A stretch of DNA of 45,673 bases from sequence record DRR723986_637; one strand, 5' to 3'. A model generated the notes under the pieces. That model saw only the letters and a program-made list of their open reading frames with translations. It was not told where the DNA came from and ran no database searches. The position numbers and the translations under genes were made by a program. Every line of letters begins with the position of its first letter. Position 1 is the stretch's first letter. Of this stretch, positions 2,540 to 20,887 are shown one piece after another.

Positions 2540-4051
2540 TTAATATCCTGGATTTCCCCAACGCTCTACAGCATTAGCTAATTGTAACTCTATTAGTGGT
2601 ATTGGAAAAACTTCATTTTTGTTTGTAGTAAATCCTTCTATATATTGTGCAGCTTTATTGGTTCTAACTAAATCAAAAAAGCGATGACCTTCACCAGCTA
2701 GTTCTTTTCTTCTTTCTGTATAAATAACTTCAAGTAAGTCACCCTCTGCAGTTGTATAGTCATTGCTATTATCGCCATAAGCTCTTGCTCTTACCTGATT
2801 TAAATATTCTTCTGCGTTTCCACCGCCTGATTGAGCTTCTGCCTCAGCAGCCATAAGTAAAACATCTGAATATCTAATAGAACGATAATTCTGAGCATAA
2901 TTCAATGGGTCTGAACCTACACCATCTTCGGATTTACGTGGCATATACTTTCTATTAAATAAACCAGTATCGTCTCTTCCTTGAGAATACGAATCTTGGT
3001 CATTTCGTAAATCATAGAAGGTAACATCTCTTCTAGAATCATTTGCATCAAACATATCATAAAGCTCTACTGATGGTAAACAAAATCCCCAACCAGAAGA
3101 ATACACAGGGTTATCGTAAGGTGATCTAGGTCCACAGAATTGAGGGAAATATGTTCCCTGACTACATTCTATGCAGCCCCATCCTGCTGGTTCAACACCA
3201 GTATATTGAATTTCAAATACGGATTCTGATGCATTTTCACCTTCACCTTCGAAAAGCATAGCATAGTTTTCAACTGTTGTTAAGCTATATTGGTTACTTC
3301 CTATAACTTCATTTAATTCTGATGCTGCATCAGCAAACTTAGTTTGGTCAAAAGTACCATGGTACAAATACACCTTGCCCAATAATGCCTGAGCTGCTCC
3401 TTTCGTTGCCTCATACGGCAAATCCTGTACTAATGGTAAATGTGGGATTGCTTGTTTTAAATCCTCTTCAATAACACTATATGCTGTGGCGATATCTGCA
3501 ATTCTATTTAAGTTAAATTCTTCTTCAGGGAAAATTCGCTCATCGGCAATTCTTAAAACACCATCTCTTTCTACAGTTTTTAATGGTACATTACCAAAAT
3601 ATTTTACTAACTCAAATGTAAAATAAGCTCTTAAGAAATATGTTTCGGCTAGAAGCTCTTCTTTCCCTTCAAAATCCGTTTTATTCTTAAATTCTAATAT
3701 GAAGTTTGCTCTATTCAACCCTGCATACATTAAACCCCAAATACTTCTTAACTGATTCTCATCAGAAGGAGTATGAATCATTAAATTGACATTTTGTAAC
3801 GTTGGTTGATCATAGTTAAAAGCATCACCACCTGCAGCATAATCATCCGATGCTACAATACCAGTTAATACATTCCAAAACGTAGATTGGAGCATATCGT
3901 ATGTACCTACGAGAGCATTTTTATATTCTTCCTGATTATTAAAAAAATCAGAATCGTTGAAACCATCTGGCTCCACTTCTACAAAATCATCACTACAGCC
4001 AACTACATAAAGTAGTGTAAAACCTAGCAAAATTATTAATGTTCTTTTCAT
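2540..4051 (-). CDS. susD: RagB/SusD family outer-membrane lipoprotein
   Basis: Lipobox VVG-C; motifs FLRAYFTFELVKYFGNVPL, IRYSDVLLMAAEA and ERRKELAGEGHRFFDLVR; downstream of susC. Confidence 0.95.
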   Translation of the reverse strand: MKRTLIILLGFTLLYVVGCSDDFVEVEPDGFNDSDFFNNQEEYKNALVGTYDMLQSTFWNVLTGIVASDDYAAGGDAFNYDQPTLQNVNLMIHTPSDENQLRSIWGLMYAGLNRANFILEFKNKTDFEGKEELLAETYFLRAYFTFELVKYFGNVPLKTVERDGVLRIADERIFPEEEFNLNRIADIATAYSVIEEDLKQAIPHLPLVQDLPYEATKGAAQALLGKVYLYHGTFDQTKFADAASELNEVIGSNQYSLTTVENYAMLFEGEGENASESVFEIQYTGVEPAGWGCIECSQGTYFPQFCGPRSPYDNPVYSSGWGFCLPSVELYDMFDANDSRRDVTFYDLRNDQDSYSQGRDDTGLFNRKYMPRKSEDGVGSDPLNYAQNYRSIRYSDVLLMAAEAEAQSGGGNAEEYLNQVRARAYGDNSNDYTTAEGDLLEVIYTERRKELAGEGHRFFDLVRTNKAAQYIEGFTTNKNEVFPIPLIELQLANAVERWGNPGY

Positions 4052-4056
4052 AACAA

Positions 4057-7000
4057 TTAAAAGTTTAAATTAATTCCAAGTAAATAAGATGCGGCTACCG
4101 GATAAAATCCTTTATCTATACCTCCACCTAGCGGTGCACCAGTGTTAGCAGATGGATCAAAGCCATTATAATCGGTAATCGTAAATAAGTTATTTCCAGA
4201 AAGATAAATTCTAAGTTTATCTATTCCAACTGAAGAGTTGAATTTTTCTCCGAATGTATAACCAATCTGAATATTTTGTAATCTAATAAATGAAGCATCC
4301 TCTACGTGGAAATCATTGAAAAAATCAGTATTTACATTTGCTCCAGAAACTGCTCTAGGAACAGAATTGCTAGTGCCAGATCCTTGCCATCTGTCTAACA
4401 TATAAGTACCTCTATTCGCATACAAGTCTTTACGCTCGTAATCTCTAATAAGGTCATGCCCAACTGATGCAAAAGCATTAGCACTAAAATCAATATTCTT
4501 ATAAGTGAAGCCTATGTTTATACCAAACGTTACATCTGGTATTGGATCTCCAATATTTGTTCTGTCATCTGCAGTTATTTCTCCATCACCATTAGTATCT
4601 ACAAATCTAAGATCACCGGGTGCAACGTCACCTATAGTACTAAATGTGCCAGAAGGAGCGGCTGCATTTAAAGCGTCAATCTCTGCTTGTGTTTGGTATA
4701 TACCGTTTGTTTCATAACCATAATAGTGTCCTAATGGTAAACCAGGCACCATTCTAGTTATACCAGTTTGGTTAATACCTACGCCGTACTCTCCACCAAC
4801 AGGTGTTGTTCTACCGTTTAGTGAAATAACTTCATTATCTATGGTAGTGAAATTAAAATTAAAGTTAAAATTAAAATCATCTGAGAAATCGTCATTATAT
4901 GCAAATGCTAGTTCTAAACCTTTGTTACGAACTGTACCTGCATTAACCACGGAAGCACCAGTTGCTGGAGCACCAACTCCTGTTGTTGCAGAAGCTTGTG
5001 GAGTTAATAACAAATCTTTTGTTTGCTTTCTGTATGCATCTGCAGATATACTTACTTTGTTATTGAATAATCTAAAATCTATACCAATATTTGCTGTTTC
5101 TTGTTCCTCCCATTTTAAATCAGGGTTACCAGGTCTCCCTGGTGCAAGACCAAATAATAAATCATCAGAACCAACATCAATAGTTGCCTGACCATCTAAT
5201 CTTGTAATGAAAGCAAATGATGGAATACGGTCATTACCTATAATACCATAACTACCTCTTAATTTGAGGTTACTAATCCAACTTACATCTTGCATAAAAT
5301 CTTCTTCAGAAATATTCCAACCAATGGAACCTGAAGGAAAATATCCTACATTGTTACCATCTTTTGATGAAAATTGAGATGACACATCTCTTCGGATTAC
5401 TGCTGAAAGTAAATATTTACCTTTATAGCTATATTGAAATCTAGTAAATAACGAAGACAATCTTACATCATACCAATCTGCACCATTTTCTAAAGCTGCT
5501 TCTGTAAATCTTGGTTGTCTTACCATTCCAGGATCCCATATAGATTGACCAACCCTATCTGTACCAACCTCTGTTCTTCCTATATCACCATAGAATCTAC
5601 CTTTATTTCTATATAATGATGTTCCTAAAAGAACTGTTAGATCGTGACTTTCGTTAAATGTATTGGTATATGTTATAAAATTATCCCAAGTGAAATCTGT
5701 ATAATCTGCACCAAAATCAATTACCTCATTTATTACTGCATCATCTTCTAACTCTGCTAATGAATTTACAGTATTTAAAGATTTTCCACCACCATAATAT
5801 ACTTCAGGTCTGAATATATCATCGCGTACATTGGCATGGTTTCCCTGAAATCTTGAAGTTACTTTAAAATTCTCTAAAAACGTATAATCCAATCCAAGAA
5901 CACCACTCCAACGTGCTACTCTTGAGGTATTATAAGTGTCTGCTATTTGAGCAACAGGATTAATGATTTCAATTTGAGTAATATCATTTGCGAGGGCAAA
6001 ATTTCCATCCATGTCTCTAACAGACATTGTTGGATTGATATTTACAGCATTATATAAAACAGCTCCAATACCACCTTCAGCTAAATTCTGTTTTTCGGAA
6101 ATAGTATGTAGACCGTTTGCTGTAAGTTTTAAATTTTTTAGTATATCATATTGATAATTAAATCTTGCCGTTAAACGTTCATAATTATTTTTACTTCCTC
6201 CAACGATACCATCTTGATTTAAATAAGAAATACCAAAAGAGTAAGCTGATTTTTCACCACCACCAGTTACGTTTAAAGAAATATTAGATATAGAAGCACG
6301 CTCAAATACTTCATCCTGCCAATCGGTACCTTTTCTTGGATATACAAAAAATTCAGTATCATCAGCAGCGTCATTTACATAAATTGCAAAAGCGCGTGGA
6401 CTTAATAAGTCCATCTTTCTACTTGTGGTTTGAAAACCAGTATAACTATCTAATTGAAACTTTAGTTCTGAACTAGTTCTACCAGACTTAGTTGTAATAA
6501 GGATAACACCATTGGCTGCTTGCACACCATAAATACCAGCTGTTGCATCTTTTAATACGTTAACTGTTTTTATATCGTTAGGATTTATTACAGATAAATC
6601 TGTTATTCTGTTTCCATCAACTAAGATTAATGGTGCATTATCTCCATTTGTTGTGATTCCCCTAATTCTAATATTCAATCCACTACCAGGTGAACCTGAG
6701 TTTGATGTAATATTAACACCTGCTACTTGACCTTGAATCGCTTGTTCTACTCTTACTGGATTGAGCTTTTCAATGGTTTTGGAGTCTAATACACTTACAG
6801 CACCAGTAACTTCTTTTTTCTTCTGTGTACCGTAACCAATAACTACAATTTCACTTAATGCTTCTGCATCTTCTTGCAGCATTATATTAAGCGGTTGGGC
6901 ATTGGTAATAGTGATTTCTTGTGTTATAAATCCTAAATAAGAAATGATTATAACAGAATTTAAAGGCACATCCGTAAGGGTAAATTTACCATCAAAATCT

Positions 7001-7158
7001 GTAGACGCACCACGGCTTGTGTTTTTAAGTAAAACATTAACTCCAGGAAGTGGCTGACCACTTGATGCTTCTGTAATTGTACCAGACACATCTACATTTT
7101 GACATGTCACAGATAATGAAAAAAGTACGAGGAAAATTGTAAAAAGGTTGATTTTCAT
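4057..7158 (-). CDS. susC: SusC/RagA family TonB-dependent transporter
   Basis: N-terminal carboxypeptidase-regulatory-like domain; VVIGYGTQKK; VLKDATAGIYGVQAANGVILITTK; NPDLKWE; C-terminal NLNF. Start moved to ATG 7158 (MKINLF), which gives a signal peptide. Confidence 0.95.
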   Translation of the reverse strand: MKINLFTIFLVLFSLSVTCQNVDVSGTITEASSGQPLPGVNVLLKNTSRGASTDFDGKFTLTDVPLNSVIIISYLGFITQEITITNAQPLNIMLQEDAEALSEIVVIGYGTQKKKEVTGAVSVLDSKTIEKLNPVRVEQAIQGQVAGVNITSNSGSPGSGLNIRIRGITTNGDNAPLILVDGNRITDLSVINPNDIKTVNVLKDATAGIYGVQAANGVILITTKSGRTSSELKFQLDSYTGFQTTSRKMDLLSPRAFAIYVNDAADDTEFFVYPRKGTDWQDEVFERASISNISLNVTGGGEKSAYSFGISYLNQDGIVGGSKNNYERLTARFNYQYDILKNLKLTANGLHTISEKQNLAEGGIGAVLYNAVNINPTMSVRDMDGNFALANDITQIEIINPVAQIADTYNTSRVARWSGVLGLDYTFLENFKVTSRFQGNHANVRDDIFRPEVYYGGGKSLNTVNSLAELEDDAVINEVIDFGADYTDFTWDNFITYTNTFNESHDLTVLLGTSLYRNKGRFYGDIGRTEVGTDRVGQSIWDPGMVRQPRFTEAALENGADWYDVRLSSLFTRFQYSYKGKYLLSAVIRRDVSSQFSSKDGNNVGYFPSGSIGWNISEEDFMQDVSWISNLKLRGSYGIIGNDRIPSFAFITRLDGQATIDVGSDDLLFGLAPGRPGNPDLKWEEQETANIGIDFRLFNNKVSISADAYRKQTKDLLLTPQASATTGVGAPATGASVVNAGTVRNKGLELAFAYNDDFSDDFNFNFNFNFTTIDNEVISLNGRTTPVGGEYGVGINQTGITRMVPGLPLGHYYGYETNGIYQTQAEIDALNAAAPSGTFSTIGDVAPGDLRFVDTNGDGEITADDRTNIGDPIPDVTFGINIGFTYKNIDFSANAFASVGHDLIRDYERKDLYANRGTYMLDRWQGSGTSNSVPRAVSGANVNTDFFNDFHVEDASFIRLQNIQIGYTFGEKFNSSVGIDKLRIYLSGNNLFTITDYNGFDPSANTGAPLGGGIDKGFYPVAASYLLGINLNF

Positions 7159-7218
7159 ATTTAGTTGAGTTAGATACTGCAACTTAACTAGAAAGATTAA
7201 AGAATCCTCAATATTTAA

Positions 7219-7396: not shown

Positions 7397-10204
7397 TTAT
7401 AGCTCAATAATGTAGTTCGACAAGCTCTGATCGTGATTTAAACCCATTTTTTTTCTTAAACGATAACGTTTCACTTCAACACTTTTATGAGAAATATTTA
7501 ATAAAGGGGCAATCTCCTTAGAAGATAAATTCAACCTCAGATAAGCACATAATCTTAAGTCATTTGGCGTAATGGATGGGTGCAGATTTTTAACGCGTTT
7601 CATAAAATCTTTATCTACATTATTAAAGGCCTCCTCAAAAAGTTTCCAATCACTCGTATTATTAAGACTCCTGTTAATTAATCTTATCACCGCTTTGATA
7701 TCAGTGATAGTTTTACTTTTAACTAATTCTACTTTAATGTCATTTAATAATTCATTTCTTTTCACCAAGTTCATGGTAGCCATTCCAAGCTCTCGGTTTT
7801 TATTATCTATATCGAGCCTTAAATTTTTGTTTTTAAACTCAATAATTTGCCTCTCGTTCTCAAGCTGCTCTAATTCCAATTCTCTTTCTTTATCCTTAAT
7901 TAATTTTTGCTTTTGTTTTTTGTAATGTTTCTTATTGAAATAGTGGATTAATAACATCACACAAATACTTGACATAACATAAAATACAATAGCTAGCGGC
8001 TTTAAGTACCATGGTTTTTCTATTGAAAAACTATAAGAAATAGTATTATTTGATAAAACACCGTCAGACTTGGACCTTACTTCAAAAATGTAATCACCAT
8101 GAGGTAAGTTTTCAAATAATATTTTAGATTTGGAAGTCCAATCACTCCAAACATCATAAATACCTAAAAGTCTATATTGGTAGAGAGTTGATGTGAGTTT
8201 ATTATAATTAGCAACACTGTAATTAAACTCTATATTATTCTCCTTATTCTTAAATTCTGCCTCATTTGTTAAATCAATAGAAGTTAAATCATTATGCAGA
8301 GTTCCATAAGAAACTGCATTTAATACTATGTTCTCTGGATTTAAAATCAGTTTATTAATATCAATGATGATATAACCTTCTGTTGTCCCAATTAAATATT
8401 TATCATCACCAAGAAATAATATATTCTCATAACCAGACTTACTTTTCCTCAGTTCACTGGAAATTGGAATAGAATTAACTAATGGCTCATTGGATAGTTT
8501 ACCAGGTTCAATAAAAACTATTTCATCTTTAGAAAAACCCCATATTCTATTTCCAAGTTTATCACTTATTAACTTGCCAGATAAATACTTCTCACCACCA
8601 AATAACGCGCTTAAAAGACTATCTTTTTCTAATGAATTATTGGCTTTTTCATAACGAAAAACTCCTTCCTTAAAACTATAAATAATGTCGTTATTGTATT
8701 TACATAGACTCGATTTAATACCTTTTTCTATTGGTATTTTATTATAATCAACGACTCTTTTAAAGGATGAATCTATAACCAGTTGATAAACACCTTTATA
8801 CTCATGACTTACTAATAATTCATTTGTGCCTGAAACTTCAAAAAAACGAGAAGACATGTCAAATCCTTCTAATTTATTTCTATAAAACCATGTATTGTTT
8901 TTTTTCTCCAATACTGATAATCCTTTATAATTTCCTTGAAGTAATAAATTTGGATAGCCTTCTATTCTTTTTATAGACCATGTACCTTTTTCCTTGGCAA
9001 TTAAACTTATGGTTTTATCATTGTTAATTAAAAAAGTTCCATTATCATGACCACAGAAAAGCGTATCGTTAAGAACAAATAAACACCATACCTGACCTTC
9101 TGTACCCTTAATAAAATTAAAACTAGTATTAGAATCTAATTGCTTATAAAACAGCCCTTGATTAGTCCCTAAAAATAAATATTCATTTAATTTAGCCGAT
9201 GTATAAACGGTACCTAAAACACCTTGCTTATCCTTATAAACTCTATAAGGCGAATCTAAGTTAACCGTATTAATACCATTATCTAATCCCAGCCATATAT
9301 TCCCGAAGCTATCCTCTTTGATGGATAATACCGTATTATTTGTTAAACCAGTTTTCTGATCTATTTTCAGTTTTACATTACCAGATTTATCTAGGTGTAG
9401 GATACCATTAGAGATGGTACCTAGCATAAAACTTCCATCAATTAATCTAATACTACTATAAATGCTAATATTAGACAGTAATGTATCTGCAGGAATTTCC
9501 CATTTACTAATAAGCCCGTTTTCGTAAGAAAAAAATCCGTCGTTTTTTGTTTGTAATAATAAAGTATTTTCAGAGTCGTAAATACCAACTAATTCTTGAT
9601 TTTGAATCTCACTAGAATTTAAAAATAATATTTCCTTACCAGTTTCTATTTTATAGATACCGTCATTTTCTTTCTGAAAATATATAGTTTCATTAACCTT
9701 AAACATCTTACTCAATCTTGATTCAGAATTAATTATCTGGAAGCTCTCATCTTGAGTATTATAGATATAGATACGTTCTAAAGATTGAAATAAAACATAG
9801 CCTTGAATATCAATAATACCCCAAAATTCTTCGTCTTCTTTTACTTTAAACTCTTTATTATCTAATAGTGAAGTGTAAGTAAGTTGGCCATAGATATCCT
9901 TTATCCAATATCCAAAATCCATATAACCACCAGAATAGATTCTATCCTTTACAGCATTAACAGATCTTATAATTCCTTCATTAGGAGAATTATACAATAG
10001 CCAAGATGAGCCATTATATTCCAATAGTCCTTTATTATTGGCCACATATATAAATCCATTATCAGCTTGGTCTATAGACCAATTCTGATCTTCAGCATTA
10101 TATTCTTGCGGTGTAAATACTTGAATAGAAGGAATTTCTTGTGACACTGCCAAGGTCACAAATAAAAAAACCATAAGAAAGAAAGCCTTTTTTAGCAAAT
10201 CCAT
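7397..10204 (-). CDS. Membrane-spanning PUL regulator: periplasmic beta-propeller + Y_Y_Y domain, TM helix, coiled coil, LuxR-type HTH
   Basis: Signal peptide; propeller repeats (IWLGLDNGI); YQYRLLG..W..FENLPHGDYIFEV; KPWY followed by a TM helix; C-terminal LSSKEIAPLLNISHKSVEVKRYRLRKK. No kinase or receiver domain. Confidence 0.9.
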   Translation of the reverse strand: MDLLKKAFFLMVFLFVTLAVSQEIPSIQVFTPQEYNAEDQNWSIDQADNGFIYVANNKGLLEYNGSSWLLYNSPNEGIIRSVNAVKDRIYSGGYMDFGYWIKDIYGQLTYTSLLDNKEFKVKEDEEFWGIIDIQGYVLFQSLERIYIYNTQDESFQIINSESRLSKMFKVNETIYFQKENDGIYKIETGKEILFLNSSEIQNQELVGIYDSENTLLLQTKNDGFFSYENGLISKWEIPADTLLSNISIYSSIRLIDGSFMLGTISNGILHLDKSGNVKLKIDQKTGLTNNTVLSIKEDSFGNIWLGLDNGINTVNLDSPYRVYKDKQGVLGTVYTSAKLNEYLFLGTNQGLFYKQLDSNTSFNFIKGTEGQVWCLFVLNDTLFCGHDNGTFLINNDKTISLIAKEKGTWSIKRIEGYPNLLLQGNYKGLSVLEKKNNTWFYRNKLEGFDMSSRFFEVSGTNELLVSHEYKGVYQLVIDSSFKRVVDYNKIPIEKGIKSSLCKYNNDIIYSFKEGVFRYEKANNSLEKDSLLSALFGGEKYLSGKLISDKLGNRIWGFSKDEIVFIEPGKLSNEPLVNSIPISSELRKSKSGYENILFLGDDKYLIGTTEGYIIIDINKLILNPENIVLNAVSYGTLHNDLTSIDLTNEAEFKNKENNIEFNYSVANYNKLTSTLYQYRLLGIYDVWSDWTSKSKILFENLPHGDYIFEVRSKSDGVLSNNTISYSFSIEKPWYLKPLAIVFYVMSSICVMLLIHYFNKKHYKKQKQKLIKDKERELELEQLENERQIIEFKNKNLRLDIDNKNRELGMATMNLVKRNELLNDIKVELVKSKTITDIKAVIRLINRSLNNTSDWKLFEEAFNNVDKDFMKRVKNLHPSITPNDLRLCAYLRLNLSSKEIAPLLNISHKSVEVKRYRLRKKMGLNHDQSLSNYIIEL

Positions 10205-10400: not shown

Positions 10401-10485
10401 TACTGAAGGCGGGACTTGAACCCGCACGACCATAATGGTCATTGGATTTTAAGTCCAACGTGTCTACCAATTCCACCACTTCAGC
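10401..10485 (-). tRNA. tRNA-Leu (anticodon TAA)
   Basis: Reverse complement GCTGAAGTGGTGGAATTGGTAGACACGTTGGACTTAAAATCCAA...GCGGGTTCAAGTCCCGCCTTCAGTA; cloverleaf with long variable arm; CCA not encoded. Confidence 0.95.
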
Positions 10486-10528: not shown

Positions 10529-10600
10529 AGCGAAAGACGGGATTTGAACCCGCGACCCTCACCTTGGCAAGGTGATGCTCTACCCCTGAGCTACTTTCGC
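10529..10600 (-). tRNA. tRNA-Gly (anticodon GCC)
   Basis: Reverse complement GCGAAAGTAGCTCAGGGGTAGAGCATCACCTTGCCAAGGTGAGGGTCGCGGGTTCAAATCCCGTCTTTCGCT. Confidence 0.95.
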
Positions 10601-13959: not shown

Positions 13960-14616
13960 TTGAATAAGTTAAAAAAACCTTGGCCAACTAAGGAAGCAAT
14001 GACTCAAATTTATGAGATGCATCTTTGGGGCGGAAAGGACTATGATTTTTATTCTGGTGAAGGTTCTCACCATCGAGACATTATAAAACCCTATTTAGAA
14101 GCCGTGACTTCTTTTTTAGCTTCGCACAACAATAAACTAACGGTTTGCGACTTGGGATGTGGTGATTTTAATGTTGGAAAGCAACTTGTTGAATTTACTA
14201 AATCATTCATTGCTATTGATATTGTAGAAAACCTAATCAAAAGGAACAAAGCATTATTCATGGCAGATAATTTAGAGTTTCATTGTTTAGATATTTCCTT
14301 AGATGAATTGCCAAAAGCAGGTTGCATTATTCTGAGGCAAGTCCTTCAGCATTTATCAAATAATGAAATTAAAAGTATTGTCGAAAAACTTTCTAACTAT
14401 AAATACATAATACTCACAGAGCATCTTCCAATCGGTGAATTCACTGCTAACAAAGATGTTATTTCTGGTCAAGGAATTCGTATAAAATATAATAGTGGTG
14501 TAAATCTATTGGTCGCGCCTTTTAATCTCATAATAAAAAAGGAAATACTACTGAATGAAATAAAATTAGAAACTAATAAAGGAATAATTAAAACTGTTTT
14601 ATACGAACTGTACTAA
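13960..14616 (+). CDS. Class I SAM-dependent methyltransferase, substrate unknown
   Basis: Motif I VCDLGCGD, acidic IDI, ILRQVLQHL. Likely start is TTG 13960, just after the upstream stop (ORF track gives 13927). Confidence 0.8.
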   Translation: MNKLKKPWPTKEAMTQIYEMHLWGGKDYDFYSGEGSHHRDIIKPYLEAVTSFLASHNNKLTVCDLGCGDFNVGKQLVEFTKSFIAIDIVENLIKRNKALFMADNLEFHCLDISLDELPKAGCIILRQVLQHLSNNEIKSIVEKLSNYKYIILTEHLPIGEFTANKDVISGQGIRIKYNSGVNLLVAPFNLIIKKEILLNEIKLETNKGIIKTVLYELY

Positions 14617-15740
14617 CTATTAATTTCATTCAACAACCACAAGTAATCTTCACGATTCTTTACAAAATCACGATCTGAAATATCTATAATTTTTACGTTT
14701 AATTCTGTTTGATTCCGTAAGAAGCTTAAGTATCCAGAATTGATTTTCTCAAGATATTCATCTTGTATTTCTTTCTCATACTTACGTCCGCGCTTTTTTA
14801 TATTTTCTTGCAATCGTTCCGTATTTTGATAGAGATAGACATATAAATCTGGTCTTGCGATGTCTTTATAAACCTGATAGAACAATTTTCGATATAGTCT
14901 AAACTCATCCTCGGGTAAGGTTACCTTTGAAAAAATGAGCGACTTATGGACGTCGTAATCACTAACCATAAAGTCTTTGAACAAATCCAATTGCGATAAA
15001 TCATCACTTATTTGCTGATAGCGATCCGCTAAAAAAGACATCTCTAGTGTAAAGGCGTAACGCTCTGGTTCCTTATAAAATTTGGGTAAAAACGGATTGT
15101 CAGCAAAGCGCTCTAAAATGAGTTTAGCATTAAAATCTTTTGAAATATTTGTTGCTAAGCTCGTTTTCCCTGCACCAATATTCCCTTCTATTGCAATAAA
15201 GTTATAATCTTTGAAACCATATATTCGTTGTGGATTCTTCAACCATAGATTTATTGGTTTAATTTTAGAATTATCAGCACATTCTTCCAAAAGGATTAAA
15301 ACTTTCTTGTTGAGTTCTGGGTGATCAAAATCCTTAGCAATATCCGCCAAAGGCTGTAATACAAATTTACGTTTATGCATCTCTGGATGTGGAATCATTA
15401 ATTCCTTTTCAGAAATTATTTCATCCTCATAAAACAAAATGTCTAAATCTATTTCACGCGATTCATAACCAATGTAACTTGATTTTTTACGTCCCAATCT
15501 TTTCTCAATTAGTTGAAGTTGCTTAAGTAACTTCTTAGGCTTTAATTCAGTTTCAACTCTAATACAGGCATTAAAAAAGTCATCACCATCAAAACCCATA
15601 GCCGCAGTTTCATAGACTTTAGACAGTCTTTGTATTGTTCCAATTTTTGTATAAATAAGATCTACCGCAGACTGCAAATTTTGCAATTTGTTACCTTTAT
15701 TCGATCCTAGTGCGATGTATACTTTTTTTATGGTTGTCAT
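14613..15740 (-). CDS. folK: HPPK (FolK) fused to a deoxynucleoside kinase domain
   Basis: N-terminal YIALGSNKG, SREIDLDIL, IPHPEMHKRKFVLQPL; C-terminal IAIEGNIGAGKTS P-loop and dNK-type LERFADNPFL, PDLYVYL. Confidence 0.92.
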   Translation of the reverse strand: MTTIKKVYIALGSNKGNKLQNLQSAVDLIYTKIGTIQRLSKVYETAAMGFDGDDFFNACIRVETELKPKKLLKQLQLIEKRLGRKKSSYIGYESREIDLDILFYEDEIISEKELMIPHPEMHKRKFVLQPLADIAKDFDHPELNKKVLILLEECADNSKIKPINLWLKNPQRIYGFKDYNFIAIEGNIGAGKTSLATNISKDFNAKLILERFADNPFLPKFYKEPERYAFTLEMSFLADRYQQISDDLSQLDLFKDFMVSDYDVHKSLIFSKVTLPEDEFRLYRKLFYQVYKDIARPDLYVYLYQNTERLQENIKKRGRKYEKEIQDEYLEKINSGYLSFLRNQTELNVKIIDISDRDFVKNREDYLWLLNEINS

Positions 15741-16625: not shown

Positions 16626-19286
16626 ATGAAAAAGTTTCTCAAAGTTATTGGAATTATTTTACTGCTTTTTATAGCTATTCTCATTGCAATTCCGTTTGTA
16701 TTAGAATCTAAAATAGATACTATTGTGCAGAATTACGCCGATGAAAACATAGATGCTGACCTCAGTTTCGACGACATTGGCCTTAGCCTTATTACCAGTT
16801 TTCCTAAAGCAGAAGTAAGTGTAGAAAACCTTAAAATTATAAATAGAGCACCATTCGAAGATGAGACTTTAGCTACTGCAAAATCCATTTCTTTTGACTT
16901 TCCTGTTGGTCAATTATTTAGCAGCTCTAGTGAGCCTTTAGCAATAAATGAAATTATTGCAGATGAGTTGCTTTTAACTTTAAAAACAAATAAAAATGGA
17001 ACTGTTAATTACGACATTTCAAAGGATAAGTCCTCTACAGCTCAAAGAGCAGACTCGAGCGCCACAGGTTTTAGTTTTGATATAGAACATTATGAGCTCA
17101 ACAATAGTGCCTTCACTTACATTGACGAAGTTTCTAATACAACGTTTTATGCTACTGAAATTAATCATTTTGGGTATGGTATATTTTCAGGTGAAGTTTC
17201 CGAATTAGAAACAGAAACCGAAGCAAAAATTAGCCTAAGTATTGACAGCACATCTTATTTGAAAAACAATGCTATCAAATTAGACGCATTAATTGATATC
17301 GATTTAAGTGAAGAAAAGTACACCTTCAAGGAAAACAAAGGATTTGTAAATGCCTTACCATTAGAATTTCAAGGCTATGCGCAAATGGTTGAAGCTGGTC
17401 AGCAAATAGATCTCACGTTTAAAAATCCAGAATCTACATTTAAAGACTTTTTAGCTGTTATTCCGCAAGACTATGCTAAAAATATTGAAGATGTAAATAC
17501 AACCGGAAACTTTACGGTTAATGGAAAAATTAAAGGTCTTGTGTCGGAAGAAACTATACCAATGTTAGATATAAATATGCAATCTGATAATGCATCCTTT
17601 AAATATCCTGATTTACCAAAACGTGTTGATAATATTAAAATAGATGCCTCTATAAAAAATACTACTGGATATGCAAAGGACACTTATGTAGATGTTAACA
17701 CTTTAGATTTTAAAATTGATGAAGATGTTTTTAAATCTGAAGCACATATTAAAAACCTTACTGGCAATATGTTGGTAAATGCTAATTTGAATGGAATTTT
17801 AAACTTAGCTAACATCACCAAAGCCTATCCAGTAGAGTTAGAAAACCAATTAAGTGGTATTATAAAAGGTAAACTAAATACCTCTTTTGATATTAATGCT
17901 ATTGAGACAAATGCCTATCAACGCATTAAAAATAATGGTAATGTCTCAATTACAGATTTTATCTTTTCTTCTGAAGATATTGTCAATCCAATACAAATTA
18001 GTAAAGCAGATCTTACATTTTATCCAGGTGTTGTAAACTTAGACAGTTTTAAAGCTATGACTGGAAAAAGTGATCTTTATGCCACAGGCCGAATTAATAA
18101 TCTCTTGGGTTTTTTATTAAGCGATAAAAAACTTCAAGGCGACTTTAAGGTAACCTCAGATAATTTTGTGGTATCAGATTTTATGGTGGAAGATGAGTCA
18201 GCATCAAAATCCTCAAATAAGACGTCATCAGACGAAGAATCATTAAAAATTCCAGATTTTCTAGATTGTTCTATTTATGCCAATGCGCAAAATGTAGTTT
18301 ATGATAACTTAAACCTCAAGAAGGTCAGTGGTAAACTTCTTATAAAAGACCAAAACGCTAAATTAAGTGAAATGACCACAAATTTGTTTGGTGGCAAACT
18401 GGGCATAAATGGCAATATTTCAACCAAAGAGGCAAAGCCAAAATTTGATATGCAACTCGCCATGGAGCAATTTGACATTTCCCAATCTTTTAAAGACTTA
18501 GAAATGCTAAAAGCCTTAGCACCTATTGCTAAAGTTATCCAAGGTAAGCTCAATTCAACAATAGACGTTAGTGGATTATTAGATGCCCATTTTGCTCCTG
18601 ATTTAAGTACCATTTCTGGCAATGCACTTACAGAAATATTAACCTCTAATATTGATGTTTCTAAAAGCCCACTGCTATCTAGCTTAGATAGTAAGTTAAA
18701 TTTTATTGATTTTAATCAACTCGAAAAGGATATAACTACCAAATTAAATTTTGAAAATGGTGAAGTTTCCGTAAAACCATTTACAGTTACTTATAAAGAT
18801 ATTCCTATTGAGGTTTCAGGATCTCACGGTTTTAATAAAAGTATGAATTATAATGCTATGTTTCAAGTACCAGCTAAATATCTTGGTGGTGAAGTAAACC
18901 GATTGATTGGACAAATTAATGATTCGGAAGTTAATAAATTGACGATACCAGTTACAGCAAATATTGGTGGTACATTTTCTAGCCCAAATGTTTCCACTGA
19001 CTTAACAAGTGGAATTTCAAATCTGACCAATCAGTTAATCGAAATTCAGAAACAGAAACTTATTAGAAAAGGAAAAGACAAGTTAAATGATCTATTAGGT
19101 GTTGCATTAGGTGGAAATTCTAACAGTACCAAAACAGATTCCTCATCTACAAAAACAGATAGCACAAAAACCAGCACTACCGAAGATAAAGTTAAGGAAG
19201 GTGTTAAAGAGGTATTTGGCAATATCTTTGGAAAAAAGAAAAGCAAAAAAGATAAAAAAGAGCAAGATTCTACCCAAAATGAGTGA
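16626..19286 (+). CDS. AsmA family protein
   Basis: N-terminal anchor, long beta-strand-rich body, AsmA-like C-terminus (IPVTANIGGTFSSPNV), low-complexity tail. Confidence 0.85.
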   Translation: MKKFLKVIGIILLLFIAILIAIPFVLESKIDTIVQNYADENIDADLSFDDIGLSLITSFPKAEVSVENLKIINRAPFEDETLATAKSISFDFPVGQLFSSSSEPLAINEIIADELLLTLKTNKNGTVNYDISKDKSSTAQRADSSATGFSFDIEHYELNNSAFTYIDEVSNTTFYATEINHFGYGIFSGEVSELETETEAKISLSIDSTSYLKNNAIKLDALIDIDLSEEKYTFKENKGFVNALPLEFQGYAQMVEAGQQIDLTFKNPESTFKDFLAVIPQDYAKNIEDVNTTGNFTVNGKIKGLVSEETIPMLDINMQSDNASFKYPDLPKRVDNIKIDASIKNTTGYAKDTYVDVNTLDFKIDEDVFKSEAHIKNLTGNMLVNANLNGILNLANITKAYPVELENQLSGIIKGKLNTSFDINAIETNAYQRIKNNGNVSITDFIFSSEDIVNPIQISKADLTFYPGVVNLDSFKAMTGKSDLYATGRINNLLGFLLSDKKLQGDFKVTSDNFVVSDFMVEDESASKSSNKTSSDEESLKIPDFLDCSIYANAQNVVYDNLNLKKVSGKLLIKDQNAKLSEMTTNLFGGKLGINGNISTKEAKPKFDMQLAMEQFDISQSFKDLEMLKALAPIAKVIQGKLNSTIDVSGLLDAHFAPDLSTISGNALTEILTSNIDVSKSPLLSSLDSKLNFIDFNQLEKDITTKLNFENGEVSVKPFTVTYKDIPIEVSGSHGFNKSMNYNAMFQVPAKYLGGEVNRLIGQINDSEVNKLTIPVTANIGGTFSSPNVSTDLTSGISNLTNQLIEIQKQKLIRKGKDKLNDLLGVALGGNSNSTKTDSSSTKTDSTKTSTTEDKVKEGVKEVFGNIFGKKKSKKDKKEQDSTQNE

Positions 19287-19399
19287 TTTTTACGTAAAAA
19301 CCACACATTTCTCCCAATTTTTGTTAATAATTGCTCATTTTTTTGGATATCTAAAATATTACGTTATATTATGGGTTGACAAAATTTTAAATAGTATAC

Positions 19400-20263
19400 A
19401 TGAGGCAATTAAAAATCACCAAGCAGGTAACCAACAGAGAAGACAAATCTTTAGATAAGTATTTACAAGATATTAGTAAAATTCCGTTGATTACTGCAGA
19501 TGAAGAAGTAGAATTAGCGCAACGAATAAAAAAGGGTGATCAAGAAGCTTTAGACAAACTAACAACAGCCAACTTAAGGTTTGTTGTTTCTGTAGCTAAG
19601 CAATACCAAAATCAAGGTTTAAAACTTCCTGATTTGATAAATGAAGGAAATGCTGGTTTAGTAAAGGCTGCAAAACGTTTTGATGAAACCAGAGGATTTA
19701 AATTTATATCTTATGCCGTATGGTGGATTAGGCAAGCTATCTTACAAGCTCTAGCTGAGCAATCTCGTATTGTACGTTTACCTCTTAATAAGATAGGTAC
19801 TATAAATAAGATAAATAAAACATTTTCTCATTTAGAGCAAATACACCAGAGACCACCTAATGCAGAAGAAATTGCAAGAGAGTTAGACATTAGCGTTAGA
19901 GAAGTTAAACAGTCTATGAAGAATTCTGGGCGTCATCTTTCAATGGATGCACCATTGAAAGACGGTGAGAACTTTAGCCTGTATGACGTAGTGAGTGAAA
20001 GTGAATCACCAAGACCAGATAAGAGTTTAATGAAAGCATCATTGAACACAGAGATTAATCGTGCATTAGAAACCTTAACACAAAAGGAAAGTGATGTTAT
20101 TCGTTTAAATTTTGGTATTGGAGATCAACCACCAATGACCTTGGAAGAAATAGGTAGCATTTACGATTTAACTCGCGAACGTGTGAGGCAAATTAGAGAA
20201 AAAGGAATAAGAAGATTACGCCACGCAAGTAAAAGTAAAATCCTTAAGACCTATTTAGGGTAA
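19400..20263 (+). CDS. RNA polymerase sigma factor, RpoD/SigA family (Bacteroidota type lacking region 1.1); probably a paralog of the primary sigma
   Basis: [55 protein letters not shown]. Confidence 0.93.
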
Positions 20264-20313
20264 AAAAAGCTTATTTAAATATTATATTATTTTTTATTTA
20301 CAAATAGTTGCCA

Positions 20314-20321
20314 TATATTTG
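20314..20321 (+). promoter_or_regulatory. -7 promoter element upstream of rpsU
   Basis: TATATTTG matches TAnnTTTG, 42 nt before the ATG. Confidence 0.6.
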
Positions 20322-20363
20322 CCGACCATTTGCAAGAATTAGATAACAAAAAAATATCGATAG

Positions 20364-20558
20364 ATGATTAAAATCGAAATAAAAGAAGGAGAAAATATAG
20401 AGCGTGCTCTTAAGCGTTACAAGCGTAAACATAGAAACGTTCAGATTATGCAAAATCTGAGAGAGTCTCGTTATTTCACTAAACCATCTGTTAAGAGAAG
20501 AAGAGAAATCCAAAAAGCTCAGTACATTCAGGGTTTAAGAGATCAAGAAGACATATAG
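20364..20558 (+). CDS. rpsU: 30S ribosomal protein bS21 (probably a second copy)
   Basis: 64 aa; KEGENIERALKRYKRK, YFTKPSVKRR, KAQYIQ. Confidence 0.93.
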   Translation: MIKIEIKEGENIERALKRYKRKHRNVQIMQNLRESRYFTKPSVKRRREIQKAQYIQGLRDQEDI

Positions 20559-20582
20559 GTAATTGCTACACTAAGAATTATC

Positions 20583-20618
20583 AAAAAAAAGAGCAACCAA
20601 ATGGTCGCTCTTTTTTTT
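20583..20618. terminator. Bidirectional intrinsic terminator
   Basis: A8-GAGCAACC-AAAT-GGTCGCTC-T8 between convergent genes. Confidence 0.85.
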
Positions 20619-20635
20619 GTGCAAAATAATTTGCT

Positions 20636-20887
20636 CTACCTGAATTTCTCTTTTTCAATTGGAATTTCAATGGGTTCTATTGGTCTGTCTTCATAAAAAT
20701 GTTCAAAGGTCTTATCTGTGGTATAATCATCGGTCAATACTTTATACACCATTACCACAACAAGTATTTGTCCTGTAACGGTTAAATAAAATACCCAATT
20801 AAAAGGAAAATTTAATGCGCACATTACCGTAATCGTAATTAGTATTAACGATGTAATGCTTATATACAAAAATGGTGAAAGCTTCAT
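20636..20887 (-). CDS. Small membrane protein of unknown function (two TM helices)
   Basis: 83-aa ORF with ATG start, two hydrophobic segments and an acidic tail; ends at the terminator. Confidence 0.75.
   Translation of the reverse strand: MKLSPFLYISITSLILITITVMCALNFPFNWVFYLTVTGQILVVVMVYKVLTDDYTTDKTFEHFYEDRPIEPIEIPIEKEKFR

Follow-up and report, generated by a model that had tools for sequence, protein, structure and literature searches.

A gene for an RpoD-type sigma factor lies directly ahead of rpsU, the gene for ribosomal protein bS21, in the stretch of DNA analyzed here (45,673 nucleotides from a marine flavobacterium of the genus Winogradskyella, called the window). This raises the question of whether the two genes form a functional module of paralogs, or whether they are housekeeping genes or mere neighbors. 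On the + strand, the sigma gene (positions 19400 to 20263, 287 aa in the ORF list) is followed by rpsU (20364 to 20558, 64 aa), and the spacer between them (20264 to 20363, + strand) is A-rich and contains no other ORF, no terminator, and no Shine-Dalgarno (SD) sequence. An earlier reading of the same DNA, called here the sequence-only reading, had described a tandem with 100 nt between the genes, which the ORF list bears out with its 100-nt spacer, and all the peptide strings that it quoted are present in the translations. It also placed the pair next to asmA. An ORF does adjoin the pair, at 16626 to 19286, but its name comes from a sub-threshold NCBIfam match (E value of 1.7e-7, 30 bits for a cutoff of 412), and Pfam gave no match for this gene, which we call asmA-like. 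On the other side, a convergent 83-aa ORF (20636 to 20887) is found 3′ of the terminator described below. Rfam revealed no known RNA element near the pair, the two tRNAs of the window being located elsewhere, and the 45.7-kb window contains no second copy of rpsU.

The Pfam profiles PF00140 (residues 17 to 49), PF04542 (56 to 123), PF04539 (134 to 207), and PF04545 (222 to 275) all matched the 287-aa protein above cutoff. Sigma70 regions 1.2, 2, 3, and 4 are thus all present, indicating a primary-like (group 1/2) architecture. With NCBIfam, the protein scored under every RpoD equivalog cutoff, as expected of a Bacteroidota sigma factor lacking region 1.1. We compared it with the sigma factors of four other loci that harbor the same pair (L001, L002, L016, and L020; together with the window, the cassette loci). 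The five proteins share 78 to 89% identity with each other and 74 to 82% identity with primary-type sigma factors, the window protein lying at 76 to 80%, whereas primary-type proteins are about 94 to 97% identical among themselves (median pairwise identity, 94%), reaching 99% for those of Mesoflavibacter, Jejuia, and Hanstruepera. In a tree of 101 rows built by a quick search, the 18 cassette-type rows formed one side of a branch with an SH-aLRT of 74, i.e., modest support for their monophyly, and for 13 of the 18 a neighboring rpsU was presumed on the basis of sequence similarity, not seen. They fell within a clade of 23 divergent sigma factors (support of 98) nested in Flavobacteriaceae. Of the two top-scoring proteins, P0001, a 446-aa sigma factor with an internal duplication, was left out, as was P0002, which has the same length and score profile. 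The sigma paralog originated within Flavobacteriaceae when the primary sigma gene of Bacteroidota was duplicated, and it evolves faster than the primary sigma factor.

The primary-type genes are found in another context. The order rpsO-pnp...sigma-rpe was seen in one locus (L012), and rpe lies downstream of the sigma gene in two others (L007 and L019), which matches the context given in the sequence-only reading; the primary-sigma peptides given there likewise agree with the consensus of 152 primary-type sequences. By identity, clade, context, and upstream motif, the window sigma is not part of this conserved orthologous group. Moreover, the two types coexist. Primary-type sigma factors 99 to 100% identical to that of Jejuia occur under the names Winogradskyella (7 clusters), Psychroserpens, and Gelidibacter sediminis. 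Organism names or longest contigs are common to both types in 6 pairs: the names G. sediminis and Flavobacteriales bacterium 33_180_T64 occur in cassette-type and primary-type clusters, and longest contigs of equal size (3303183, 4106053, 4094245, 3987455, and 1567805 bp) occur for both. The contig of 3303183 bp, from Winogradskyella, apparently holds a primary-type and a cassette-type sigma gene. Its separate clade, its different context, and this coexistence show that the window sigma is a true paralog and not the primary sigma factor of Flavobacteriaceae, as had been supposed from the window by itself.

Cassette and primary sigma factors are distinguished by 26 fixed differences. Only S113A is located in the region 2.3-2.4 segment and only K266R and A269G in the helix-turn-helix of region 4.2, so that the DNA-reading parts (2.4 and 4.2) are largely conserved, again as first proposed. 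The other positions that differ belong to regions 1.2, 3, and 4.1 or to the core-binding segment of region 2, with region borders set from Pfam and the established layout of the family. Coexistence with a primary sigma factor and these promoter-reading segments point to a candidate sigma factor of the group 2 type.

We then considered the pair as a whole. Among the matches listed, 4 of the 80 loci compared showed full synteny with the window. They come from Psychroserpens, Geojedonia, Mariniflexile, and Yeosuana, and have in common with the window the order folK-yhhQ-asmA-like-sigma-rpsU-DUF2797-GH3. The adjacency is therefore kept in relatives together with the flanking genes, a point on which the sequence-only reading had staked its proposal. 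In addition, seven longest contigs are common to the sigma and bS21 lists, including some as short as 4717, 4810, and 6306 bp. Both genes are under purifying selection (pN of 0.05 to 0.16 for pS of 0.63 to 0.97). As the gene order recurs in four genera despite saturated synonymous sites, the arrangement did not come about by chance. Five related second-sigma genes (L003, L009, L048, L051, and L072) have no rpsU nearby, which indicates that the sigma paralog does not need the bS21 gene.

Alignment of the five loci revealed a promoter-like block before the sigma gene (19329 to 19370, + strand), AATTGCTCA ... TTG-N19-GTTATATT, a putative promoter that includes a GTTA[TG]A[TA]T box at 19363 to 19370. 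This box is present in all five cassette loci, 33 to 80 nt 5′ of the sigma ATG. The element TGTAAC-N16/17-CGTA[TC][AC]A, found upstream of primary rpoD in 36 of 39 loci, occurs in none of the five. No terminator-like site was detected between the sigma gene and rpsU, and 21 of 200 shuffled sequences folded as well as the window spacer (z score of -1.26). Downstream of rpsU, a hairpin at 20582 to 20619, unassigned to a strand and followed by a T-run, has a folding energy of -20.3 kcal/mol (z score of -5.2; 0 of 200 shuffles as good), i.e., an intrinsic terminator that closes the pair. An equivalent hairpin with a T-run is present 3′ of rpsU in L001, L002, L016, and L020, and thus in 5/5 loci. 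The terminator is symmetric, its stem being flanked by an A-run on the 5′ side and a T-run on the 3′ side, and may therefore also serve the convergent 83-aa ORF. The spacer measures 100 nt in the window versus 23, 36, 36, and 37 nt in the four other loci. Scan and shuffles thus agree with the earlier description of a pair lacking an internal hairpin and followed by a strong terminator, and together with the short spacers of the relatives they make the pair look like one transcription unit, as had been suggested. The sigma gene and rpsU are probably transcribed as one mRNA, from the conserved upstream block to the hairpin after rpsU.

A match to TAnnTTTG, the flavobacterial promoter consensus (PMC3587595), is present in the window spacer (TATATTTG, 20314 to 20321), 50 nt 5′ of the rpsU ATG, and could be a separate rpsU promoter. 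The motif is at chance level in the window (64 matches versus 73.5 in shuffled sequences), and it is absent from the 23- to 37-nt spacers of the other four loci. Within 150 nt upstream of 10 paralog sigma genes there was no match, and upstream of primary-type sigma genes there was one in 2 of 39 loci, so that this motif cannot tell the sigma types apart. A scan for E. coli-type promoters yielded 7 sites for 7.9 expected and was uninformative.

The 64-aa ORF matched PF01165 (Ribosomal_S21; 58.5 bits, cutoff of 27) and NCBIfam TIGR00030 (50.6 bits, cutoff of 28.95). Its best PDB match was F. johnsoniae bS21 (7jil_z; E value of 2.9e-15), and in the gapless alignment with that protein Tyr54 and Ile55 are kept, the residues that hold the 16S 3′ tail in Bacteroidia bS21 (PMC7797042). 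The motif KRKHRN is found in 116 of the 120 closest database matches, the canonical KF[DE]K[TV] in 0 of the 120, and KA.YIQ in 117 of 120 subfamily members. Relative to canonical bS21, residues 23 to 37 are rebuilt. The C terminus reads LRDQEDI, and identity with full-length representatives of cellular canonical bS21 is 53 to 66%, the canonical set being made of 50%-identity representatives without names or genome context. Judged by its motifs, the window protein is a member of a distinct subfamily (KRKHRN..MQNLRE), in line with the earlier view that it differs from the primary form. It fits the Bacteroidia-type signature, with Tyr54, Ile55, and a weakly basic C-terminal part, and is predicted to sequester the anti-SD. 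The ESM Atlas yielded bS21 clusters at the phylum level only, which are uninformative as to copy number.

Bacteroidia initiate translation without SD pairing, as bS21, bS18, and bS6 hide the anti-SD, and in Flavobacteriales a strong SD is confined to a single gene, rpsU, which detects ribosomes lacking bS21 (PMC7797042 and PMC9976891). We analyzed the rpsU leaders. The 35-nt leaders of the five cassette loci pair with the 16S tail with energies of +1.6 to -4.0 kcal/mol (-1.4 kcal/mol for the window, versus -24.7 for a perfect complement), and none of the five contains a GGAGG-like motif. In PMC9976891 an extended SD is defined by a value at or below -13 kcal/mol. Because such a leader is absent from 5/5 loci, the cassette rpsU cannot be under SD autoregulation. 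In Table S1 of that paper, of which 2418 of 4465 rows are covered here, the rpsU SD value is -16.5 for Mariniflexile, Olleya, Algibacter, Tamlana, Changchengzhania, Oceanihabitans, and Mesoflavibacter and -16.2 for Seonamhaeicola, ten genomes of these eight related genera ranging from -16.2 to -16.5. It is 0 in 3/3 complete genomes of Winogradskyella and -0.36 in Lacinutrix sp000211855. Each genome has a single entry in the table, and the excerpted text of the paper does not state which gene was chosen when two are annotated. Changchengzhania lutea combines the value of -16.5 with a cassette-type bS21 (P0231), which supports a second, SD-bearing rpsU at the species level; two rpsU copies are supported at the genus level for Mariniflexile, Olleya, Tamlana, Seonamhaeicola, and Oceanihabitans. 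The SD-less values of Winogradskyella fit two copies or a single copy alike.

We propose, with a probability of roughly 0.6, that the pair is a bicistronic module coupling a group 2-like sigma factor to a bS21 protein that escapes autoregulation. The conserved block before the sigma gene, distinct from the element of primary rpoD, would be its promoter. Under transcriptional control of its own, the module would deliver a group 2-like sigma factor that recognizes much the same kind of promoters but differs in kinetics or regulation, and it would supply bS21 made outside the SD-dependent feedback that sets the levels of canonical bS21 in Flavobacteriales. With the paralog in the bS21 site and the anti-SD sequestered, translation of the canonical, SD-dependent rpsU would be shut off, and expression of the module would thus shift ribosomes toward the paralog. 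A simultaneous exchange of polymerase and ribosome subunits, as put forward in the sequence-only reading, may be conjectured.

A real, if minority, possibility is that Winogradskyella, the genus from which the window comes, has no bS21 gene besides the cassette rpsU, which would be a housekeeping gene, the canonical SD-regulated copy having been lost. The sigma factor alone would then be alternative, and the enlarged spacer would contain a promoter that drives rpsU at least in part. The SD-less values of Winogradskyella and Lacinutrix, set against the strong ones of related genera, are consistent with such a loss, as are the long spacer of the window and the position of TATATTTG ahead of the rpsU ATG. 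However, an SD-less value may only reflect that the cassette copy was picked for the table of PMC9976891, and the TAnnTTTG match occurs at chance frequency. Were the cassette gene the sole copy in Winogradskyella, the "alternative bS21" part of the proposed module would fall in that genus.

We consider it unlikely that the two genes are neighbors by history only, expressed and acting independently, with an adjacency that carries no functional meaning. The second-sigma genes without rpsU in five loci are compatible with this explanation, and since everything from folK to GH3 is syntenic, a stable chromosome region could explain why the genes have remained together. Nevertheless, terminator-free spacers of 23 to 37 nt and a terminator right after rpsU leave little room for separate control in 4/5 loci, and both partners are divergent paralog lineages that also co-occur on short metagenomic contigs.

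The proposed module might also go further and operate as a self-contained switch, a version that we find quite improbable. Upon activation of the module promoter, the sigma factor would redirect the polymerase, and the bS21 paralog would convert ribosomes and favor the mRNAs produced with its partner. To that end, the SD-less paralog would fill bS21-free 30S subunits, silencing synthesis of canonical bS21, and its residues 23 to 37 would change the choice of leaders in favor of mRNAs of the partner sigma factor. If the switch were real, it would represent the first natural matched pair of a sigma factor and a ribosomal protein, and an instance in nature of perturbed anti-SD sequestration in Bacteroidia.

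Phages encode bS21, and four uncultured phage records matched the window protein. Nevertheless, recent acquisition of the pair as a mobile element or from a phage is very improbable. A phage origin of this bS21 was rejected, as the matches have 49 to 53% identity over 67 to 78% of the protein and are no closer than cellular canonical bS21; in addition, chromosomal synteny is conserved in five genera and the sigma clade branches from within Flavobacteriaceae. It is hardly conceivable that the pair represents the only rpoD and rpsU of the genome, i.e., housekeeping genes in an unusual place, which the sequence-only reading had named as an outcome that would undo its proposal: neither gene is truncated, both are under purifying selection, and annotation sources often call the sigma factor "RpoD/SigA" or "primary sigma factor," but for the sigma gene this explanation is already refuted by the primary-type copies of Winogradskyella, nearly identical to those of other genera, and by the distance of the cassette sigma factors from the primary type.

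A bS21 protein with anti-SD contacts but no SD leader would bypass the feedback loop and could override it, and its link to a second primary-like sigma factor would make the effect of bS21 content on mRNA choice testable in nature. The pair may account for Winogradskyella and Lacinutrix, which are among the exceptions in the published survey of rpsU leaders. Transcription control in Bacteroidota is usually described in terms of one primary sigma factor and ECF sigma factors, to which the window sigma would add a conserved candidate of the group 2 type. Group 2 sigma factors, which are primary-like and non-essential, include RpoS, cyanobacterial SigB-E, and actinobacterial HrdA-D/SigB, and structures of RpoS and SigB were among the PDB matches of the window sigma. 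It has in common with them the primary domain set, near-identical promoter-reading segments, a coexisting conserved primary sigma factor, and faster evolution; unlike them, it appears to be operon-linked to a ribosomal protein gene. Our literature search found no description of group 2 sigma factors in Bacteroidota.

Other features of the pair have precedents. Dokdonia sp. strains MED134, PRO95, and 4H-3-7-5 have two RpoD homologs, one of which shares about 93% identity with F. johnsoniae RpoD, while the promoter consensus of the second is unknown (PMC3587595). Like the organisms with the cassette, they are marine Flavobacteriaceae with a second RpoD; the excerpted text of that paper does not mention a neighboring rpsU. 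In the MMS operon of E. coli and other bacteria (PMC13374519), the genes for bS21 and an RpoD-type sigma factor also share an operon, linking translation and transcription initiation. That operon has the order rpsU-dnaG-rpoD with a terminator after rpsU, whereas in the window the sigma gene precedes rpsU, with no dnaG and no internal terminator. The MMS genes are also housekeeping copies, unlike the sigma gene of the window and, in relatives, its bS21 gene, which are extra paralogs. The statement in the sequence-only reading that no such coupled pair had been described thus does not hold, given that rpsU-rpoD linkage and the two Dokdonia homologs are on record, although our literature search found no pair of sigma and bS21 paralogs in Flavobacteriaceae.

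For the ribosomal protein, a close parallel is the SD-autoregulated rpsU of F. johnsoniae, which shares with the cassette gene the protein family, Tyr54, and an acidic C terminus sequestering the anti-SD (PMC9976891 and PMC7797042), but has the extended SD leader that is missing from 5/5 cassette loci (PMC9976891). Francisella tularensis has several bS21 genes, the paralogs of which are interchangeable in ribosomes and alter the set of mRNAs translated (PMC9578407 and PMC13374519), and one of these genes is located in an MMS operon with rpoD (PMC13374519). Francisella differs in belonging to another phylum, in having SD-using ribosomes, and in lacking a paralogous sigma partner. Bacteroidota are not among the lineages with extra bS21 genes in the list of PMC9976891, as excerpted. 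Zinc-responsive C+/C- ribosomal proteins similarly involve a second copy under separate transcriptional control that can replace the first (PMC9976891); bS21, by comparison, binds no zinc according to the same source, and nothing at the window indicates control of the Zur type. The rpsU-rpoD linkage, the additional RpoD of Dokdonia, and the existence of bS21 paralogs in other lineages are therefore already known, and it is their combination in one locus that appears to be new.

The sigma gene of the window (19400-20263, + strand, 287 aa, Sigma-70 regions 1.2, 2, 3 and 4) is followed, after a spacer of 100 nt, by rpsU (20364-20558, + strand, 64 aa, Ribosomal_S21, TIGR00030 above cutoff). The sequence-only reading had described this tandem with its 100-bp spacing, and its family assignments hold; the peptides that it quoted were all found in the window's translations. 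It had also placed a strong hairpin after rpsU and none between the genes, and indeed the spacer holds no terminator-like site and folds no better than shuffled sequences (z -1.26), and a hairpin with a T-run lies 3′ of rpsU at 20582-20619 (-20.3 kcal/mol, z -5.2). The window contains no further copy of either gene. Its surroundings are ordinary chromosomal genes, the flanks coding for a FolK fusion, a queuosine-precursor transporter, a weakly supported AsmA-like protein, DUF2797, a GH3/OlsH-like enzyme, ClpX, ClpP and trigger factor. The cluster closest to the window's sigma (97% identity) is named W. aquimaris, so that protein similarity points to Winogradskyella. The FolK fusion (14613-15740, - strand, 375 aa) joins an N-terminal HPPK part to a C-terminal dTMP-kinase-like part whose match is weak and sub-threshold (32.7 bits versus a cutoff of 83.25). 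The - strand further carries genes for a SusD-like protein and its paired TonB-dependent receptor at 2540-7182, for a Y_Y_Y-domain protein of 935 aa at 7397-10204 and for two tRNAs at 10401-10485 and 10529-10600. An 83-aa ORF on this strand (20636-20887) contains hydrophobic stretches, matches no family and converges on the rpsU hairpin.

Adjacency of the pair, on which the sequence-only reading depended, recurs in relatives. In a genome scan of 80 loci taken from at least 600 matches, the order folK-(yhhQ)-asmA-like-sigma-rpsU-DUF2797-GH3 was common to the window and four loci, those of Psychroserpens jangbogonensis (L001), Geojedonia litorea (L002), Mariniflexile ostreae (L016) and Yeosuana marina (L020). 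All four keep the FolK fusion, and a relative of the 83-aa ORF was seen only in Y. marina (49% identity over 70 aa). No bS21 gene was found in the fetched flanks of the other 76 loci, where sigma lies in different contexts; 55 of these extend at least 5 kb downstream, and four, with less than 400 nt, are not judgeable. From sigma stop to rpsU start, the distances are 100 nt in the window and 23, 36, 36 and 37 nt elsewhere, and a hairpin with a T-run follows rpsU in all five cassette loci (z -3.4 to -7.4). The spacer, enlarged only in the window's genus, holds TATATTTG (20314-20321, 50 nt upstream of the rpsU start), a match to the flavobacterial TAnnTTTG box that is statistically at chance level. 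In both genes, non-synonymous differences amount to 0.05-0.16 per site versus 0.63-0.97 for synonymous ones, indicating that both are maintained by selection and that their adjacency is older than the saturation of silent sites.

Several lines of evidence bear out the proposal that the window's sigma is a paralog and not the primary factor: lower identity, a different context, a separate clade, and the presence of both types in the same genera. Non-cassette Flavobacteriaceae sigmas (loci L003-L045) have a median pairwise identity of 94%, with the primary-type proteins of Mesoflavibacter, Jejuia and Hanstruepera 99% alike. Identity is 78-89% within the five cassette sigmas and 74-82% between them and the primary type. 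The context that the sequence-only reading gave for the primary gene, rpsO-pnp-...-sigma-rpe, was found in locus L012, and rpe lies 3′ of sigma in L007 and L019. With the primary-type sigma of Jejuia as query, the protein collection returned 99-100% identical proteins from Winogradskyella (P0241, P0246, P0259, P0291, P0309, P0310 and P0330), Psychroserpens (P0271) and Gelidibacter sediminis (P0353), and the window's sigma retrieved cassette-type proteins from those same genera. Both lists include G. sediminis and Flavobacteriales bacterium 33_180_T64, as well as longest contigs of identical size (3303183, 4106053, 4094245, 3987455 and 1567805), which is best explained by cassette- and primary-type sigma genes lying on the same contigs. 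Among the proteins of the collection, P0001 (446 aa, on a short metagenomic contig) is a sigma containing the equivalent of query residues 87-287 twice, through either internal duplication or faulty assembly; P0002 matches it in length and score profile.

A quick maximum-likelihood tree was built from 101 rows: the window, 79 loci (truncated L046 was dropped), and 13 of 120 window-sigma and 8 of 120 Jejuia-sigma matches, picked for carrying names. The 18 cassette-type rows, for 13 of which rpsU adjacency was assumed from similarity, are separated from the rest by a single branch (SH-aLRT 74), within a 23-row clade (support 98) nested among Flavobacteriaceae primary sigmas. Five more second sigmas, in unrelated contexts that lack rpsU, complete this clade: L003:10001-10861 (Flagellimonas profundi), L009:10001-10861, L048:10001-10864 (Zunongwangia), L051:10001-10864 (an Aequorivita MAG) and L072:7749-8609 (a Polaribacter MAG, whose branch is very long). 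L048 and L051 have in common the order sigma, CitMHS-type transporter, MscS channel. Elsewhere in the tree, Bacteroidota-type sigmas on contigs of MAGs labelled Erythrobacter (L032), Dinoroseobacter (L047) and Syntrophothermus (L054) grouped with Flavobacteriales rows (the first two) or Bacteroidales-like rows (the third); they are probably mis-binned Bacteroidota DNA.

Comparison of 121 cassette-type with 152 primary-type sequences, every one exactly 287 aa long, revealed 26 fixed differences, at mean pairwise identities of 0.89 and 0.97 within the respective groups. As had been noticed from the window alone, regions 2.4 and 4.2 are largely conserved: the segment around WWIRQ (region 2.3-2.4) carries a single fixed change, S113A, and the region 4.2 helix-turn-helix two conservative ones, K266R and A269G. 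The remaining changes lie in or next to region 1.2 (15, 16, 24, 26, 29), in region 2.1-2.2 (85, 88, 92), in region 3 (143-198) and in region 4.1 (228-244). We take this pattern to be that of a group-2-type sigma, which presumably reads similar promoter elements and would diverge in how it binds core, contacts the discriminator or is regulated.

The two sigma genes have different upstream control sequences, as judged from their unlike upstream elements. A conserved block 5′ of the cassette sigma ends in GTTA[TG]A[TA]T in all five loci, 33-80 nt before the ATG (19363-19370 in the window). At 36 of 39 primary rpoD loci a family-wide element, TGTAAC-N16/17-CGTA[TC][AC]A, precedes the ATG by about 20-60 nt; it was found in none of the five cassette loci and none of the five other paralog loci. 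This element is unlike the TAnnTTTG box, which occurs within 150 nt in only 2 of the 39 primary loci, and could serve as the promoter of rpoD or as a regulatory site. The upstream block of either gene is a putative promoter.

The bS21 protein also differs from the canonical form, as had been claimed, and belongs to a distinct subfamily. Its best 120 database matches are all at least 80% identical and come from over 20 named genera, among them Bizionia, Winogradskyella, Mangrovimonas, Gelidibacter, Aestuariibaculum, Jejuia, Olleya, Lacinutrix, Tamlana, Mariniflexile, Yeosuana and Changchengzhania. The motif KRKHRN is present in 116 of them, versus none with the canonical KF[DE]K[TV] turn; the canonical form, ...KRKFDKTG..RQLR.R..., is seen in 50%-identity representatives and in 7jil_z, the bS21 chain of the Flavobacterium johnsoniae ribosome. 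The window's protein aligns with 7jil_z without gaps over residues 1-61, differing mainly at residues 23-37 and 44-48. Tyr54 and Ile55, which contact the 16S 3′ tail by stacking and packing (PMC7797042), are both retained. In Flavobacteriales, rpsU is described as the one gene with a strong, extended Shine-Dalgarno (SD) sequence, translated better by ribosomes lacking bS21 and thus autoregulated (PMC9976891). Such an extended SD is absent from all five cassette rpsU leaders, which are A-rich without a GGAGG-like motif and have duplex energies with the 16S tail of +1.6 to -4.0 kcal/mol, versus -24.7 for a perfect complement.

Table S1 of PMC9976891, covered for 2418 of 4465 rows, gives one rpsU value per genome. 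In those rows the leader scores -16.5 kcal/mol in Mariniflexile sp002848895, Olleya sp004843725, three Algibacter, Tamlana_A carrageenivorans, Changchengzhania lutea, Oceanihabitans sp016864015 and Mesoflavibacter profundi, and -16.2 in Seonamhaeicola sp001971785. Mariniflexile, Olleya, Tamlana, Seonamhaeicola, Oceanihabitans and C. lutea are also named as sources of cassette-type bS21, presumably SD-less; the C. lutea protein (P0231) has the KRKHRN motif. These organisms therefore probably have two rpsU genes, the evidence matching at species level in C. lutea and at genus level in the others. Values of 0 for all three Winogradskyella covered (W. forsetii, W. sp000828715 and W. schleiferi) point against a second, SD-bearing rpsU there or are ambiguous, PMC9976891 being silent on how duplicate annotations were treated; in this genus and in Lacinutrix (sp000211855, -0.36), either the cassette copy was scored or there is no SD-bearing rpsU at all. 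The 'S21_Loser' calls in the rows covered, for the three Winogradskyella and one Lacinutrix, fall in genera with an SD-less cassette rpsU; in these exceptions, the paralog may have been scored or the canonical gene lost.

The locus is a tandem of a paralogous sigma gene and rpsU, and we propose that the two form one transcript under its own control. This transcript would supply a primary-like sigma together with a bS21 made independently of bS21-free ribosomes. Because translation of canonical rpsU is stimulated only by such ribosomes, a paralog that occupied the bS21 site with the anti-SD still hidden would shut down the canonical gene, and could thereby take over the ribosome pool.

Parts of this arrangement are already known. 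Linkage of rpsU and rpoD is classical, in the rpsU-dnaG-rpoD (MMS) operon (PMC13374519). Dokdonia has two RpoD homologs, the promoter of the second being described as unknown (PMC3587595). Several phyla have known bS21 paralogs, which have been studied in Francisella. Bacteroidota are not among the lineages with extra bS21 listed in PMC9976891, and a full-text search for a sigma paralog combined with a bS21 paralog returned, in the texts sampled, nothing beyond the MMS, Dokdonia and Francisella cases. What appears to be new is a conserved putative operon in which a clade of marine Flavobacteriaceae joins a group-2-like sigma to an SD-less subfamily of bS21. Whereas the MMS operon carries the housekeeping copies, with rpsU first and the primase gene between, the cassette has the opposite order, a paralogous sigma gene followed by rpsU.
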